Source of the DNA: Bacteroidales bacterium
GTDB lineage: Bacteria > Bacteroidota > Bacteroidia > Bacteroidales > G3-4614
Direction: 5' to 3'
Length of the DNA: 64,000 bases
NCBI GenBank assembly: GCA_036656055.1
Contig: JAVVOY010000005.1
Coordinates: forward strand, 6,610 to 70,609
Positions 1 through 37,040 of this stretch are shown here, in pieces; positions within the stretch are counted from its first letter, which is position 1, and every line of letters begins with the position of its first letter. The position numbers were made by a program, and so were the translations under genes. Under the pieces are notes generated by a model. It did not search any database. It worked only from the letters and a program-made list of their open reading frames with translations, and was not told the origin of the DNA.

Positions 1-104
1 TCCTTTTGTATATGGGGAGTAAAGTCATGAATTCAAAAAGATTATTTTGAAAAGAAGACAGACACAAAAGTTGTAGAAGATGTTATAAAATAGTAAAATC
101 CTAT

Positions 105-27461: not shown

Positions 27462-28211
27462 TTGAAACCCATAAGAGACATATCAGCATATATCATTCGA
27501 GGAGCCCTCACAATGCTCCTCCTATCCACATCCATACTTATCCAAGCCCAGAACAGCGATAAAAAAGATCTCAGTTCCCCCGGCATCCCCATAGAAAACG
27601 ACACCTTAGAATTCACCACCGACAAAAACGATGTCAGATCATTCACAACCCAGCCCACTAAAGATATAAACAAAAGCAATACACAAAAAGCCGACACAGT
27701 CAAAATCTTCGTTCCCGACCCCATACGCGCAGTATGGTACTCCGCATTAGTACCGGGTCTCGGGCAAATATACAACCGCAAATACTGGAAACTCCCTATA
27801 CTCATAGGAGGATTCGTTGGGCTCGCATACGGAATATCCTTCAACAGTCGCTATTACACAGATTACTCCAACGCATACCGCGACATTTACAGCAACGACC
27901 CCAACGCAAACAGCTACATAAATTTCATCCCGTACAACTATCGGCACAACAAAGAGTGGATAGAGCAAAATAAAGAGTGGCTAAAAAACTCTATCAAACG
28001 CAAAAAAGACTTTTACCGTCGCAACCGCGACCTTTGCATAATAGGCATGTTCGGAATATACGCATTAGCCATAATAGACGCATACGTAGACGCACAACTC
28101 TACAACTTCGATATTACACCTGACGTATCCATGAAAATCACCCCGGCAGTATTAGAACCAACACTCTATTCACAATCCACGCTTGGATTACAATGCTCAA
28201 TAATATTCTAA
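27462..28211 (+). CDS. DUF5683-domain protein
   Basis: SALVPGLGQIYNRKYWKLP and IDAYVDAQL motifs; usual position after parB in Bacteroidetes. Confidence 0.85.
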   Translation: MKPIRDISAYIIRGALTMLLLSTSILIQAQNSDKKDLSSPGIPIENDTLEFTTDKNDVRSFTTQPTKDINKSNTQKADTVKIFVPDPIRAVWYSALVPGLGQIYNRKYWKLPILIGGFVGLAYGISFNSRYYTDYSNAYRDIYSNDPNANSYINFIPYNYRHNKEWIEQNKEWLKNSIKRKKDFYRRNRDLCIIGMFGIYALAIIDAYVDAQLYNFDITPDVSMKITPAVLEPTLYSQSTLGLQCSIIF

Positions 28212-28216
28212 AAGAT

Positions 28217-29743
28217 ATGAAGAAAACAATAATCTGCACCCTAATAGCAATAGCCACAGCTACCGGCATAACAAAAGCCGTAAGCTATCTGTCAGACATA
28301 GAACTACCACGGGACACTATAACCGACAGTGAAATGGTTATAATAGAGAGCATAGAAAACGAAGCAGACACAATCCTCTCAAATTGGTTTCTACAAAAAT
28401 TCACCGATCTCGACAGCGACTGCATAAGTCGCAGCGAGAATATCCAATACGATGACACCACCTACATCAAACGCCTCTCATCACTACCCACCCTTATAGA
28501 CATGCCCTATAATCAGATAGTAAAAGAGTACATAAACATATATACCGGCAAACGTCGCAAACTCGTTGAATCTATGCTCGGCTTCAGCCTTTACTACTTC
28601 CCCATCTTTGAACATGCACTCGAAAAAGAAGAGTTACCCCTCGAACTAAAATACCTCCCCATCATTGAGTCAGCCCTCAGACCTAACGCCGTATCCAGAG
28701 CAGGAGCCACCGGATTATGGCAAATAATGCTTAAAACAGCACGAACATTAGGAATGGAGGTCAATTCACTCGTTGATGAAAGACGCTCCCCAATAGCATC
28801 ATCAGAAGCAGCAGCCCGCTATCTCAAACAACTATACAACATGTATCAAGACTGGCCACTTGCAATAGCAGCCTATAACTGCGGACCAGGCAATATCAAC
28901 AAAGCCATACACCGCTCAGGAGGGAAAAAAGACTATTGGAGTATTTACCCCTTTCTACCCCGCGAAACGCGCGGATACCTCCCGGCATTCATCGCAGCAA
29001 ACTACGTAATGAATTATTACGACAAGCACAATATATGCCCTGTAAGCGCCCAAATACCACTCGTTACAGACACCATCAGGATAAACAAAAGAGTAAATCT
29101 CAAACAGATAGCCGCAGTACTTAACACATCAATAGACATGCTCCGCGAGCTCAATCCCCAATACCGCTGCGATATAATTCCAGATAACGACAAAGCATAT
29201 CACCTTATGCTCCCCATACAACTCACATACGCATATATCGACTCCCGTGACTCCATCCTCAATTACCAAGCAGAAAACTACGCAAGGCTCAACACCGTAG
29301 AACCATCACAATACACAAGTTATCCCCAAAAAGCAGTAAGTCATCGCAAATACCACAAAGTAAAACGAGGAGAAACACTCTCAACAATTGCCAACCGCTA
29401 TAATATGAGCGTTACCACCCTCAAAAAACTTAACGGCCTACACGGAAACACAATACAGGCAGGCAAACAGCTAAAACTAAACAAAGCCACCAAATACATA
29501 GCATCAGCAACAGAAAAGACAGTAACAACAACAACTACACAAGACACAAATAACAGTTCAAAAACTACAAAACAGCCATTAGCAAACAACACAAAAGCCA
29601 AATATCATAAAGTTACCACAGGCGATACCCTCGGAAAAATAGCAATGCAATACGGCATTAAAACCGATCAACTAAAGAAGGTCAACAAACTCAACACAAC
29701 AATTATAAAAGTTGGGCAACTCCTAAAAATTCCTGTAACATAA
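28217..29743 (+). CDS. mltD: Lytic transglycosylase with LysM domains (MltD-like)
   Basis: IIESAL (catalytic Glu), GATGLWQ, AAYNCG and PRETRGY motifs; two C-terminal LysM repeats. Confidence 0.9.
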   Translation: MKKTIICTLIAIATATGITKAVSYLSDIELPRDTITDSEMVIIESIENEADTILSNWFLQKFTDLDSDCISRSENIQYDDTTYIKRLSSLPTLIDMPYNQIVKEYINIYTGKRRKLVESMLGFSLYYFPIFEHALEKEELPLELKYLPIIESALRPNAVSRAGATGLWQIMLKTARTLGMEVNSLVDERRSPIASSEAAARYLKQLYNMYQDWPLAIAAYNCGPGNINKAIHRSGGKKDYWSIYPFLPRETRGYLPAFIAANYVMNYYDKHNICPVSAQIPLVTDTIRINKRVNLKQIAAVLNTSIDMLRELNPQYRCDIIPDNDKAYHLMLPIQLTYAYIDSRDSILNYQAENYARLNTVEPSQYTSYPQKAVSHRKYHKVKRGETLSTIANRYNMSVTTLKKLNGLHGNTIQAGKQLKLNKATKYIASATEKTVTTTTTQDTNNSSKTTKQPLANNTKAKYHKVTTGDTLGKIAMQYGIKTDQLKKVNKLNTTIIKVGQLLKIPVT

Positions 29744-30994: not shown

Positions 30995-31036
30995 AAGAGC
31001 CCGTCTTACTTTTCAAAAAGTAAGACGGGCTCTTTT
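30995..31036. terminator. Terminator between convergent purT and the SGNH-like gene
   Basis: Perfect 19-bp inverted repeat AAGAGCCCGTCTTACTTTT / AAAAGTAAGACGGGCTCTT. Confidence 0.85.
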
Positions 31037-31064
31037 GTCAAAGATATAATCATAGAATTAACAA

Positions 31065-31997
31065 CTACTTCACATCGTATAATTTTCCAATCGTATCACA
31101 AAGTATAACAGATAATTTTCTTGCTCCGGAAACACACAAGTGATCACCATCAAAAAAATCACATTTATCAAATCTACTATCATCAAAAAAGTCAAGATAA
31201 ACGACATTAGAATATTCACTTACATACTTCTCTATAAACTTCTTTGTAAGCGTAATCTCCGCCTTCTGAATATTATCCCTATAAGTAATATAAGCAGGAG
31301 TAGTCAAGAATATAACTTTTTTCCCACCACGTTCACAATCCCTAACAATACTATCAATAACACCTCTGTTTATATTAAAATCTGAACGTCTTGCATCAAT
31401 ATCCAACGAGTGCCTCTCGGCAGCCAGCAAACCTGTTTTGTCAATATCCTTACCTGAATTATCAATATATGATGTTCCAAAACCAAGATCAGAACACATA
31501 ATAAGATCATCATGATTTACATAATAATCCCATACCTGCCTATCCCCCAATTTAAACTCATAATTATCCTTATTGAACCAATCCTTAAACTCTCCCAATC
31601 CGAAATAAATACTATACTTCCTCGCACGCCACCACTCCTCCCCTTTAGAAAGGTTGCTCCAAAGAGAAAAATAAGAAATCCCAATAACAACATATTCAGG
31701 ATTACCCCTTCCTTTAAAATACGTATCATAAATAATACCGTCCCAATAAAGGGATTGAGATGTATTAGCACAATTAAAACTGCCCTCAGGCAAATAAGCA
31801 GGATTAACCCCAAAGAAAGTATGAGAGCTACCAAGAATAAGAATCTTTACCTTGTCGGCATTTTTTTCGAGATAATCATATTTAATACTATAACTGTTTG
31901 GTATCTCCCTGTACATAAACTCATAACCCAACAAGAATATTACAGTCGGCAATATAGCCAATAAAAAAGTTTTTAAAATAAACCTGTAAATCATCAT
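31065..31997 (-). CDS. SGNH-like (DltD/AlgJ-like) membrane-anchored partner of the MBOAT
   Basis: N-terminal TM anchor, LILGSSH block, C-terminal DGDHL (DxH) motif; starts 2 nt after the MBOAT stop. Confidence 0.7.
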   Translation of the reverse strand: MMIYRFILKTFLLAILPTVIFLLGYEFMYREIPNSYSIKYDYLEKNADKVKILILGSSHTFFGVNPAYLPEGSFNCANTSQSLYWDGIIYDTYFKGRGNPEYVVIGISYFSLWSNLSKGEEWWRARKYSIYFGLGEFKDWFNKDNYEFKLGDRQVWDYYVNHDDLIMCSDLGFGTSYIDNSGKDIDKTGLLAAERHSLDIDARRSDFNINRGVIDSIVRDCERGGKKVIFLTTPAYITYRDNIQKAEITLTKKFIEKYVSEYSNVVYLDFFDDSRFDKCDFFDGDHLCVSGARKLSVILCDTIGKLYDVK

Positions 31998-31999
31998 AG

Positions 32000-33438
32000 C
32001 TAAAAATTAAAGTATATGAAATTCTCCGATGATTTACCATAAATAAATATCAACAAAAGGATTACAATATACACCACCCTCCTTATCCATTTACTCCTTA
32101 CACCACTTATATAAAATTCAAATTCATGACCCCTTCCCAGCCATTCCACAAGAAACATCACGAATATAATAAACATATATATTTTACTGAAATACTGTGG
32201 GGCAGAAAACAAAGAAGCATCAAATATATTCGCCATATAACCAAAAGCCTGATATATATTATCAGCTCTGAACAATATCCAACCGAACATAATAAGGACA
32301 AATGTGACAACAATACCGGCAATCTCCATAACATTAGGGAATCTTCGCCCTTGTGCAATACTGTCTTTGTACAATTTGTTTCCCCCCGTAAGTATCAATG
32401 GGACAAATAGCAACCCATGATAAGCCCCCCAAAGGATAAACGTCCAATTAGCACCATGCCAAAAACCACACACCAAAAAAATTATCATTGTGTTAACAAT
32501 AGTCATCAACACACCCTTGTGACTACCACCAAGAGGAATATAAATATAATCACGGAACCATGTATTAAGCGAGATATGCCAACGCCTCCAGAATTCAGCT
32601 ACATTCCTAGAAAAATAAGGCATCCTGAAATTTTGAAGAAGGTTTATCCCCAGCAACTTAGCAACACCTATCGCCATATCAGAATACCCTGAAAAGTCGC
32701 AATAAATCTGGATAGTAAAATAAAAAGCGCCCAACAAAAGAGTACTTCCACTCTCCCCCTGATAATTTTCAAATATCGCATTTACAAAAACGTTAAGGTT
32801 ATCAGCTATTACAATCTTTTTAAAAAGACCATAGAGAAGCAGCCGCATCCCATCAACAGCCATTGCATAATCAAACTCCCTACATCGGCGGAACTGAGGC
32901 AAAAGCGACGTTGCCCTAGCAATAGGACCGGCAAGCAAATGAGGGAAAAAAGCAATATAAGCAAACACTGAAACAACATCACGTTCAGCCTTTATCCTCC
33001 TCATGTAAACATCTATGCTGTAACTCAGCGCAGTAAAAGTATAAAAACTAATTCCTATCGGTAAAAGGATGTCACGCGTCATCCAGTCCATTTCAAATCC
33101 AAAAATATTGAACAAGCGGGAGAAATTTTCACCAAAAAAATTAAAGTATTTAAATACACCAAGAACAGATATATTTATTAAAATATTAGCCACACTTATA
33201 ATCTTCTGCCTTCCTCTCGATCCATCACTACGGTCGATATACAATGCCGACAAATATGTAGAAACAGAGGTTAAAAGTATCAACCCCAACATTCTCCAAT
33301 CAAGCCACCCATAGAACAGATAACTCGAAAAAAGTATGATCAGATTCTGCCGAACCAGCCCCCCCCCCGGGAAGCAAACCAATACAGACAAAAAACGACA
33401 GGAAAAAATACAATAAACTCAAAAGAATTAAATAGCAT
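32000..33438 (-). pseudogene. MBOAT O-acyltransferase (AlgI/DltB/PatA-like), frameshifted at a G10 tract (phase-OFF state or assembly error)
   Basis: Family-typical N-terminus MLFNSFEFIVFFPVVFCLYWF starts at 33438 and is out of frame with the body (LPIGISFYTF, DFSGYSDMAIG, FWRRWHISL, GFWHGA). Confidence 0.85.
33359..33368 (-). repeat. G10 homopolymer inside the MBOAT 5' coding region
   Basis: Ten consecutive C on the + strand; the longest G/C run I found in the window. Confidence 0.9.
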
Positions 33439-33447
33439 ATATACAGA

Positions 33448-35259
33448 TTATTTTATTCCCCTTTTCTCTCGCACCGCTTCAACAACATTTACAATATAAT
33501 CGCCAAGTCTTTCACACTCCGACACAATATCCATAAAATGGATTCCCGCTTGATATTCGTATTTTTTATTATTTATATTCTCGATATTTGCAGTACGCAG
33601 CATATTTCGGTAATTATTTATCTCAGTCTCCTTATTGCGAGTAGCATTCATATCAGCCTCCACCATATCCGATTTACTCAAAATTGAATTCATATTATCC
33701 AAAGCCTCACTCACAAGAGAAAACATTACATTTATATGCTCCATTAAGTACCCGTTAAACTGTATATTCTCGCTATTCTTGCGCGATATTGTTCGCGCAA
33801 TACCAAAGCAACTATCACCGATACTCTCTATTTCAGTCGTCATCGTAATCATCGAACTTACCTTAAGTTTCGCCTCATAACTCAACCTTCCGTCAGCCAC
33901 CCCATTAAGATAATCAGCAATTTCAATCTCCATATTGTCGCTTATCTGCTCATACTTCTGAATACGGCTGAAAAGTTTATTAAAAGCTTCGTTCCCCGGT
34001 TTCTCAGAGAGTAAATCTCTTGACATGCCAAACATCTTTGCCGTACGTATTCCATAAACCTCAATCTCTTTCTTTGCCTGCAAAAGAGAGAGCTCCGAAG
34101 TAGACAACATCCCCCCCGAAATATATTTTAATTGGAATTCGTCCTCCTCCGTATTCTTTTGTTTAATAACATAAGTCACAATTCTGACATACATATTAAC
34201 AAACCATATCATTATAGCTACATTTATTAGATTAAATATAGTATGGAAAAGAGCCAATCCATAAGAAACCGTTGTCTGAAGATGCAAATACTCCCCTCGC
34301 AAAGCCATTTCAGAAGGAGTTAACCCCTCAGCACTACCTGATATACGGCTTATTGTCTCCGGGCTTTGCGAATTTATAAACCTCTCCAAAGAAGTAGGAG
34401 CAACACCCGTCAGATCCTGCGCCAAATTACTGACAAAATGCACAAACGGGAAAAATATCAAAAGCATCCATACCACCCCGAACATATTAAAGACAAAATG
34501 GGCAAGAGCAGCACGCTTAGCAGGAATATTACCCGACAATGCCGCCAAATTAGCCGTTATCGTAGTTCCAAGATTCTCTCCAAGCACCATTGCAGCCGCC
34601 ACATCAAAAGAGATCCACCCTTTGCTACACATTATAAGCGTTATGGCAACAGTTGCACTTGAAGATTGAACAACTACCGTCAACACAGCCCCAACAAGAA
34701 AGAAGATGATAACAGACATATAACCCATATCTGAATACCCCTTAAGAAACGACAAGACTTCCGGACTACTCTGTATATCAGGAACAGAGTCTTTTAAAAA
34801 CGTAAGCCCCATAAAAAGGAACGCAAACCCCACCATAAACTCGCCTATCGAGCGACGTTTACTACTTTTAGAAAAAATGAATGGTATAGCAAGTCCTATC
34901 AGCGGAATAGCAAAAAAACTTATATCCACGGCAAATCCAAGGAACGATATTATCCATACAGTCATCGTAGTCCCTATATTCGCCCCCATAATAACAGAAA
35001 TGGCTTGCACCAAAGAGAGCAAGCCGGCATTAACAAAACTTACAACCATAACAGTTGTGGCAGATGAAGATTGTATCAACGCCGTAATAAGCAATCCCGT
35101 ACAAGCCCCGGCAAAACGATTGGATGTCATAGCAGACAAAATAGAACGCATCTTGTCACCGGCAACCTTCTGTAACCCCTCACTCATCACCTTCATTCCG
35201 TAAAGGAACAAACCCAAGGACCCTACAAGTTTCAAAAAATCAAAAAATGAATATTCCAT
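33448..35259 (-). CDS. Na+/Pi cotransporter family protein with PhoU-like C-terminus
   Basis: Two QSSS repeats, GANIGTT and GENLGTT, C-terminal ERLGD. Confidence 0.92.
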   Translation of the reverse strand: MEYSFFDFLKLVGSLGLFLYGMKVMSEGLQKVAGDKMRSILSAMTSNRFAGACTGLLITALIQSSSATTVMVVSFVNAGLLSLVQAISVIMGANIGTTMTVWIISFLGFAVDISFFAIPLIGLAIPFIFSKSSKRRSIGEFMVGFAFLFMGLTFLKDSVPDIQSSPEVLSFLKGYSDMGYMSVIIFFLVGAVLTVVVQSSSATVAITLIMCSKGWISFDVAAAMVLGENLGTTITANLAALSGNIPAKRAALAHFVFNMFGVVWMLLIFFPFVHFVSNLAQDLTGVAPTSLERFINSQSPETISRISGSAEGLTPSEMALRGEYLHLQTTVSYGLALFHTIFNLINVAIMIWFVNMYVRIVTYVIKQKNTEEDEFQLKYISGGMLSTSELSLLQAKKEIEVYGIRTAKMFGMSRDLLSEKPGNEAFNKLFSRIQKYEQISDNMEIEIADYLNGVADGRLSYEAKLKVSSMITMTTEIESIGDSCFGIARTISRKNSENIQFNGYLMEHINVMFSLVSEALDNMNSILSKSDMVEADMNATRNKETEINNYRNMLRTANIENINNKKYEYQAGIHFMDIVSECERLGDYIVNVVEAVREKRGIK

Positions 35260-35372
35260 CTAATTTAAGTTTGCAGTTTCAATAAAAAATTGCTATTTTT
35301 AGCCTCTATGAATTGAGAGAATAAAAACGATACAAAATTAAACAAAAATTACAATAATGCAATAATTATAAA

Positions 35373-37040
35373 ATGAAAGAGACCATAGAAATTAATTGCA
35401 AAAACAATAATACAACCATCCTTGCAGAAAAAGGGAGCACACTTTTAGAGATATATCACACATCAGGGATAAAACTCAGCAATCGCATATTATGTGCAAT
35501 AGTAAACAACCGCACAGAAGAACTCAGATACAGAGTTTACAAGCCCAAAGACATTGAATTTCTCGACATAACCTCACCATACGGCATGCGTACCTACATC
35601 CGTACACTCTGCTTAGTATTATACAAAGCAGTCCACGATATCATTCCCGAAGCACGACTAAGAATAGAACACTCCATATCCAAAGGGTATTTCTGCTTGC
35701 TTTCACAAAATTTTGGCGAGACCACAGTTACACGCATAAAAGATAGAATGCGTGAAATCATCGACGCAGATATGCCTATAACACGTATAGAGACCAGAAC
35801 AGACAGAGCAATTCTGGAATTCAGAAAACGCAAGATGAAAGACAAAGTCAAACTACTCTCATCCTCACACTCATTATACACCGTCCATTATACCCTTGAT
35901 GACGTAATAGACGCATACCAGTACGAACTTACCCCATCAACAGGGTATCTCTCCATATTCGATTTCGTAAAATACAGCTACGGCTACCTGCTCATCCCAC
36001 CAAACATAGAAGACCCGACAAAACTATGCACCGTCCAAAGACAGGATAAACTGTTAGGAGCATTTGAAGAACAGACCCGCTTCAACGATATAGCAGGCTT
36101 ACAGAACGTAGGAGAGATGAATATTGCAATAGCAAAAGGACATGCACCAATAATGATAAAAGTCATGGAGGCCCTCCATGAAAAACAAATTGCACGTATA
36201 GCCGATGAAATAGCAAACCGTTTCAAGCTCAACGGCAGTGGCCGAGTAGTCCTCATTGCCGGTCCATCCTCATCAGGAAAGACTACCTTCTCCAAAAGGC
36301 TCTCAGTACAATTACTTACAAACCTTTTAGTCCCGGTCACAATATCGTTAGATAATTACTTCGTAGAAAGAGAAAAAACTCCACGCGAAGAAAACGGAGA
36401 TTACGACTACGAATCACTACATGCACTTGATTTAGACCTTTTCAATAGCGACCTCAACAATCTCCTGTTAGGAAAAGAAGTTTCAATGCCGACATACAAC
36501 TTCGAAAGCGGGACAAGAACATACAACGGAAACAAACTCAAACTACTCCCTTCAAACATACTGATTCTCGAAGGTATCCATGCACTCAATCCCGATCTCA
36601 CCACACACATTGACGACCACTATAAGTTCAAGATCTACGTCTCCGCCCTAACCTCAATATCCATTGATGATCACAACTGGATACCCACAACCGATAACAG
36701 ACTTTTGCGCAGAATAATACGCGATGCAAAATATCGTGGCAGCACAGCAAAAGAGACTATCGCCAGATGGAGCAGCGTGCGCCGCGGCGAAGAAAAATGG
36801 ATATTTCCATACCAAGAAAAAGCCGATGCAATGTTCAACACATCACTTATATTCGAACTTGCCGTAATATGTAGCCACGCCATACCGCTTCTTTTAGACG
36901 TTCCACGCGACACAGAAGAATATAACGAAGCAAAACGGCTTCTAAACTTTCTCGAACTCTTCACACCCATCACCGAACTCGATATTCCGCCAACATCATT
37001 AGCGCGGGAATTTCTCGGCGGCAGCAGTTTCAAATATTAA
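35373..37040 (+). CDS. Nucleoside (uridine/PRK-family) kinase with ThrRS-like N-terminal domain
   Basis: AGPSSSGKTT, SLDNYF, LEGIHALN and RRIIRD motifs. Confidence 0.88.
   Translation: MKETIEINCKNNNTTILAEKGSTLLEIYHTSGIKLSNRILCAIVNNRTEELRYRVYKPKDIEFLDITSPYGMRTYIRTLCLVLYKAVHDIIPEARLRIEHSISKGYFCLLSQNFGETTVTRIKDRMREIIDADMPITRIETRTDRAILEFRKRKMKDKVKLLSSSHSLYTVHYTLDDVIDAYQYELTPSTGYLSIFDFVKYSYGYLLIPPNIEDPTKLCTVQRQDKLLGAFEEQTRFNDIAGLQNVGEMNIAIAKGHAPIMIKVMEALHEKQIARIADEIANRFKLNGSGRVVLIAGPSSSGKTTFSKRLSVQLLTNLLVPVTISLDNYFVEREKTPREENGDYDYESLHALDLDLFNSDLNNLLLGKEVSMPTYNFESGTRTYNGNKLKLLPSNILILEGIHALNPDLTTHIDDHYKFKIYVSALTSISIDDHNWIPTTDNRLLRRIIRDAKYRGSTAKETIARWSSVRRGEEKWIFPYQEKADAMFNTSLIFELAVICSHAIPLLLDVPRDTEEYNEAKRLLNFLELFTPITELDIPPTSLAREFLGGSSFKY

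Follow-up and report, generated by a model that had tools for sequence, protein, structure and literature searches.

When an otherwise open gene is interrupted near its start by a run of ten G's, the interruption could belong to a phase-variable switch, to a gene in decay or to an error of sequencing and assembly. This question is raised by an MBOAT gene on the minus strand of a Bacteroidales genome (assembly GCA_036656055.1), within a stretch of 64,000 nucleotides whose full length is called here the window. The 5' piece of the gene, as it reads in this assembly (33340..33438), comprises the ATG at 33438, the MLFNS helix and the tract; in minus-strand order, the ATG is followed by MLFNSFEFIVFFPVVFCLYWFASR, by G10 (33368-33359, that is, nucleotides 71-80 of the gene and codons 24-27), which is the proposed slippage site, and by the end of the peptide, GGGWFGRI, with a TGA at 33342-33340. 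This frame gives a 32-aa product in which the tract is followed by six out-of-frame codons and the stop. The body of the gene (32000..33358, minus strand), which holds the PF03062 domain and the family motifs, lies in the frame reached with G8, G11 or G14, and this frame, which continues as LVRQNLIILFSSYLFYGW, is free of stops as far as the TAG at 32002-32000.

A script that varied the tract length alone returned an open frame of 478, 479 and 480 aa with G8, G11 and G14, respectively, and a premature stop after 31-47 aa with all the remaining lengths in the range G6-G15. Changing the number of G's therefore shifts the MBOAT gene into and out of frame, and the tract is a long mononucleotide run (G10) within an ORF, both of which are features by which contingency loci are recognized. 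The original prediction had described the locus in the same way, and its positions for the ATG, the tract and the stop, as well as the 32-aa product, proved correct. It had also stated that G11 or G8 restores the gene, which the script bears out with 479 and 478 aa, that the remainder of the MBOAT gene is intact, as seen from a frame that stays open to the TAG with no second lesion in sight, and that the partner gene is intact, which holds for the ORF at 31065-31997, of 310 aa. A translational restart from the TTG at 33391 would be unlikely to produce an active enzyme, because the first helix, M[LI]FNS, stands at the start of the same gene in all 19 of the relatives' loci listed.

The length of the tract in conspecific genomes, the comparison that the original prediction had called for, could be followed in public sequencing runs searched with the window segment 30500-36500. 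Four of these runs, referred to here as X1 to X4, matched 72-78% of the sampled words and come from four samples, all in one study; the search was directed at DNA, the kind of these runs is unrecorded and none of the four is on record as RNA. Their assembled Logan contigs were aligned to positions 31000-35500 of the window (4.5 kb). The four runs share one conspecific strain background, with about 0.7% SNPs relative to the window (33 to 35 SNPs in 4.5 kb), and fall into two haplotypes, X1 with X4 and X2 with X3, that differ at 4 sites. Throughout the 4.5 kb, indels in these contigs occur at the tract only. In X2, three additional C's on the plus strand make a G13, in a contig that spans the whole stretch at a depth of 29, while X3 has lost two bases, giving a G8, also in a spanning contig, at a depth of 9.7. 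X4 has gained one base, giving a G11 that is weakly bridged, since its contig has 10 nt on one side of the tract and falls below the bridging criterion. The assembly of X1 is interrupted within the tract, between a contig that ends at 33366 and another that starts at 33361, at a depth of 36-37.

X2 and X3 carry an identical set of 33 SNPs, yet their tracts are five G's apart, and read noise in homopolymers cannot explain a gap of five bases between contigs that span the tract, so the tract is truly variable in length. The same 4.5 kb contain eight further homopolymers of 6-7 nt, among them a C7 at 34111-34117, and all of these are free of indels in every run. The tract is thus a real hypervariable homopolymer, whose length changes much faster than the flanking sequence gains SNPs. 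Taking the window together with three of the four runs, the lengths seen are 8, 10, 11 and 13, two of them in frame and two out of frame, and both states are found on near-identical haplotypes. The comparison with conspecific genomes has therefore set G8, G13 and a weakly bridged G11 beside the G10 of the window; a G10 fixed in the species, which had been named as an outcome contrary to the switch, is not what these contigs contain, and the reading of the locus as a repeat-based ON/OFF switch gains support from the four lengths on near-identical backgrounds.

That contigs of X1 and X4 stop at the tract hints at a mixture of lengths within the sample but does not prove it; noise in sequencing through poly-G could have the same effect. 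Two further contig joints were seen in X4 inside the MBOAT gene, at 32551-33035 and 32596-32673, which skip 483 and 76 bases; their short sides measure 26 and 29 letters and they are probably chimeric matches from MBOAT genes of other organisms in the metagenome. When JGI metagenome contigs were scanned with a gapped exact pattern of the tract and its flanks, there were 0 matches, and the species seems to be absent from that contig collection. Protein-guided scanning of metagenome contigs brought up no conspecific or near-species locus and no further tract alleles (best match, 61% identity), and the same kind of scan of genome contigs returned no conspecific or near-species locus among the matches listed, the best of which reached 55%.

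Long G/C runs are scarce in the source genome, a draft of 93 contigs and 2.13 Mb with 38.9% GC. Runs of 7, 8, 9 and 10 bases number 29, 4, 1 and 2, and for runs of at least 10 bases the expectation, taken from a geometric fit to the decay at lengths 4-8, is 0.15 against the 2 seen (Poisson P ~0.01). The MBOAT tract is one of these two runs of 10 in 2.13 Mb. Among the seven G/C runs of at least 8 bases, five lie in frame within long ORFs, one is intergenic and one, the MBOAT tract, breaks a long ORF; no wider set of homopolymer-broken genes was found among these seven runs. The other G10 (G000 C16:4865-4874, outside the window) is in frame, about 1300 codons into the 2509-aa sprA gene of type IX secretion, and if it slipped like the MBOAT tract, the T9SS would be switched off. 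A C9/G9 run (G000 C39:17576-17584, outside the window) lies in frame within the gene for a 580-aa two-domain SGNH/GDSL esterase, whose domains are matched as GxDLY, Lipase_GDSL_3 and Lipase_GDSL_2; here too, a long G/C run is found in the gene of an enzyme for envelope or glycan esters. A C8 run (G000 C9:28236-28243, outside the window) is intergenic and shortly precedes a small ORF, the product of which opens with the lipoprotein-like signal MPILTVLLLMLLTFVGC; the run could be a promoter or leader tract. In another Bacteroidales MAG contig, a G13 (L057:5594-5606) is located about 90 nt downstream of another pair of MBOAT and partner genes; it lies at the 3' end of an ORF fragment on the minus strand, where it codes for a run of prolines.

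That the assembly is simply wrong at this point, the organism really having G11 or G8 and an intact gene, is improbable, and this explanation would leave room for strains to vary all the same. In its favour, one-base errors classically occur in homopolymers, the genome is a draft of many contigs, and assemblers evidently have difficulty at the tract, where the contigs of X1 and X4 are interrupted. However, the G10 of sprA in the same assembly is in frame, which argues that runs of this length are not systematically miscalled, and the independent G13 of X2, in a spanning contig, is in the same frame as G10, which means that OFF alleles exist in nature. Moreover, an error of this kind concerns the state of this assembly alone and not the variability of the tract.

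Related genes show where the tract may have come from. In a sister species of the same genus, the syntenic MBOAT gene is 63% identical and intact, and it has no G tract; the corresponding site reads CCC AAA GGG CGT CTG, and the eight codons from YWF to QNL match the spacing of the G8 allele. The best database homologue (P0001, 75% identity) has VSRGRLAW at the tract site and measures 478 aa, like the G8 form; of the 21 best database homologues, 13 have this same length. A full-length conspecific protein was not found in the homologue search, in which the best match was the one 75% identical, although one 249-aa fragment, from a record without source, is 100% identical. Among the fetched homologue loci with a recognisable start, 148 of 178 have no G/C run longer than 5 in the first 150 nt of the gene. 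Since the tract has no counterpart in orthologues, it arose in this lineage, in a loop that tolerates changes in length; by these comparisons, the tract is lineage-specific and G8 looks like the founding in-frame length. The original prediction had coupled the absence of the run from orthologues with a fixed G10 as the pattern of an ordinary pseudogene; the orthologues indeed lack the run, whereas G10 is not fixed.

The substitutions between the window and the strain of the runs indicate that the gene is maintained. In the MBOAT body, the 12 SNPs are divided into 10 synonymous and 2 non-synonymous changes, which corresponds to a dN/dS of about 0.05 (287 synonymous and 1072 non-synonymous sites), and the binomial probability of at most 2 non-synonymous changes under neutrality is 7.7e-6. 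Because of this excess of synonymous changes, the MBOAT gene is not a decaying pseudogene, an outcome that had been named as contrary to a switch, and it is under purifying selection. For comparison, the Na/Pi transporter gene shows 8 synonymous and 3 non-synonymous changes between the same strains, and the partner gene 5 synonymous and 6 non-synonymous changes. No second lesion was found in the MBOAT gene, either in the window copy or in the two spanning contigs. At the level of the genus, an MBOAT match is present in 9 of 11 congeneric genomes and was not obtained with this query in the other two, one of them 98% complete; this distribution fits a dispensable, conditionally useful function.

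These data also bear on the explanation that the tract is a hot spot with no role in switching, in which a G8 created by chance substitutions in a tolerant loop slips and the resulting losses of a dispensable gene are neutral or mildly deleterious, on the way to pseudogenisation. It would account for the finding of a single frame-broken homopolymer in the genome, for the two congeners in which the query did not find the gene and for the occurrence of the instability in a genome with intact mismatch repair. Nevertheless, it seems unlikely, given the low dN/dS of the gene body between strains and the lack of any second lesion in three copies that include out-of-frame ones. On a single haplotype, X3 is in frame and X2 is out of frame, and hence the length changes fast and, as far as seen, in both directions; moreover, the tract has grown past G8, the ancestral-length form, to 10-13 and has not been purged. 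The genes mutS and mutL are both intact, so there is no general mutator background and the instability of the tract is a local hypermutability, not the trait of a mutator genome.

Bacterial RNA polymerase is known to slip on long homopolymers during transcription, and it is conceivable that the frame is corrected during expression, by such slippage or by ribosomal frameshifting, in such a way that the tract tunes the level of the enzyme and is not a switch. This is very improbable as the whole explanation, since in-frame DNA alleles exist and suffice, without any correction of the RNA, to account for an intact, selected gene; furthermore, correction in expression would add to a switch in the DNA instead of replacing it.

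The protein encoded by the gene matches PF03062 with 93.3 bits, against a cut-off of 27 (E 2.3e-26), and this is the single match to PF03062 in the genome, which makes it the only MBOAT. It carries the motifs RRWHIS and FWHGANW, as well as a C-terminal FIYFNF that fits the FxYxxF acyl-shuttle motif; a hexapeptide of this type is found at the C-terminus of 161 of the 162 homologue ORFs in the fetched loci. The choice of the putative catalytic His is inferred from spacing only. According to the available text of a study of these enzymes, bacterial MBOATs that work with SGNH partners carry the C-terminal FxYxxF motif, the Tyr of which is auto-acylated from acyl-CoA before the acyl group is passed to the catalytic Ser of the partner (PMC12148441). 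The nearest solved structures are chains of DltB (E 1e-25). An identity as DltB itself was considered and set aside, as the protein scores 164.5 bits against a cut-off of 375 for the DltB equivalog, TIGR04091, and has the shuttle motif fused to the MBOAT, unlike DltB as described in the same text (PMC12148441).

The partner gene (31065..31997, minus strand, 310 aa) begins with an ATG located 2 nt past the MBOAT stop and is predicted to encode a protein with a membrane anchor at its N-terminus and an SGNH-like domain after it. In an alignment of the window protein with 12 homologues that likewise follow MBOAT genes, conservation is complete at G56, S58, H59, N75 and H286 and almost complete at D283, and the G-x-S-H ... 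D-x-x-H arrangement is typical of SGNH enzymes, for which reason the protein is regarded here as SGNH-like. The window's own partner protein has no match in Pfam, while PF07611 (DUF1574) matches 6 of the 13 members of the partner family, DltD or GDSL families match single members, and the Atlas neighbours of the partner carry LB_356/DUF1574. A sequence and profile search against solved structures, with E values up to 10, returned nothing credible for the partner; it gave no match to PatB either, in a searched set that may not include a PatB chain. The pair is not filed here as PatAB: nothing in these results ties it to PatAB, and some of the database names that say so are automatic. In its mechanism, judging from these motifs, the pair appears to fit the MBOAT-SGNH class.

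The surroundings of the pair have been kept in the sister species, where the gene order is, as here, SLT-LysM transglycosylase, purT, partner, MBOAT, Na/Pi transporter and PRK-family kinase. A co-oriented gene for an Na/Pi cotransporter-PhoU protein lies upstream (33448..35259, minus strand) and, since it ends 9 nt before the MBOAT ATG, the two genes are probably in one transcription unit. Two genes away from the pair, a lytic transglycosylase with an SLT domain and two LysM domains is encoded on the plus strand (28193-29743), and its arrangement near the pair is conserved in the sister species. As a pointer to peptidoglycan as the acceptor, this gene was given no weight, because purT stands between them and the genes converge. 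Peptidoglycan O-acetylation does occur in Bacteroides, as stated in the part of the source at hand (PMC1199599).

The reading that we prefer, with a probability of about 0.7, is that a hypermutable 5' homopolymer in the sole MBOAT gene acts as a slipped-strand ON/OFF switch of O-acylation, which is OFF in this assembly. Slipped-strand mispairing at replication would add or remove G's in the tract. A tract length of 2+3n (G8, G11, G14) would yield the full enzyme of 478-480 aa and the ON state, whereas the other lengths would yield a peptide of 31-47 aa that lacks everything past the first helix, and the OFF state. The ON forms would differ from one another solely in the glycine count of the loop that follows the first helix. 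In the ON state, an acyl group from cytoplasmic acyl-CoA would be transferred by the MBOAT to the Tyr of its C-terminal FIYFNF and from there to the adjoining membrane-anchored SGNH-like protein, which would then esterify an extracytoplasmic polymer, either peptidoglycan, a capsule or exopolysaccharide, or LPS. We infer slippage as the mechanism, its reversibility, the pathway of acylation, the kind of acceptor polymer and any advantage of switching, and the assignment of the product to acylation of the envelope is a prediction from its family membership. The stronger claim, namely, that this is a true selected contingency locus that stochastically switches the sole MBOAT-SGNH envelope-acylation system of a mismatch-repair-proficient gut Bacteroidales, stands at roughly even odds; under this claim, the differing glycine counts of the ON forms may make the output graded in addition to switched.

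The closest parallels are the poly-G/C contingency loci, with SSR-mediated phase variation, of Campylobacter jejuni, Neisseria, Haemophilus and Helicobacter, as outlined in the available text of a review (PMC11868660). The MBOAT locus resembles them in having an intragenic homopolymer near the 5' end, a frame-dependent ON/OFF output and a length that is polymorphic between near-identical strains, and in that the affected gene would modify the cell surface. It differs from the loci of the Campylobacter and Neisseria type in its host, an uncultured Bacteroidales of the animal gut with intact mutS and mutL, and, unlike a multi-gene phasome of poly-G/C loci, a single broken locus was found in this genome. 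Another parallel is with oafA of Haemophilus influenzae, in the text available a phase-variable O-acetyltransferase of lipooligosaccharide, and the two loci would have in common that a repeat within the acyltransferase gene turns O-acylation of an envelope glycan ON and OFF (PMC9558356, PMC11868660). However, oafA is of the AT3 family and its discovery is reportedly linked to tetranucleotide repeats, to judge from the title of a reference cited in PMC9558356, whereas the present locus combines a homopolymer with an MBOAT whose SGNH-like partner is encoded separately.

With regard to the enzymes, the MBOAT shares its conserved His motifs with the MBOAT members of the PatA/PatB, AlgI/AlgJ/AlgX and DltB/DltD systems, and its C-terminal hexapeptide, FIYFNF, compares with FIYANF in NgPatA, as far as these are covered in the available text (PMC12148441). 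As in other MBOAT-SGNH pairs, the adjoining gene appears to encode a membrane-anchored SGNH-like protein with Ser and D-x-x-H, but the pair differs from PatA/PatB and DltB/DltD in that the partner has no match to the solved structures searched and the MBOAT scores under the DltB cut-off.

Envelope O-acyl modifications commonly affect the sensitivity of bacteria to lysozyme, phages and antibodies, and the usual explanation for the variation of surface structures in gut Bacteroidales lies in invertible promoters and shufflons. As described in the accessible text of two sources, capsules, SusC/D and R-M systems of Bacteroides vary by means of invertible promoters and invertases (PMC11868660, PMC13742949). 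The MBOAT locus is found in the same order and would likewise lead to a stochastic heterogeneity of surface structures in the gut, but it would do so through replication slippage in a coding homopolymer and not through site-specific DNA inversion. In the literature searched, as far as its accessible text goes, no report was found of homopolymer or slipped-strand phase variation in Bacteroidales, nor of a phase-variable MBOAT. What is presented here is population evidence for homopolymer slippage acting on an envelope O-acyltransferase pair, the principle itself not being new. In practical terms, frameshifted genes at G/C runs in MAGs should be checked in other samples before they are called errors or pseudogenes, and, should the switch be confirmed, homopolymer lengths ought to be counted alongside inversions when phase variation in commensals is surveyed in metagenomes. 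If the proposed switch is true, repeat-based phase variation would join DNA inversion as a source of surface variation in the Bacteroidales.
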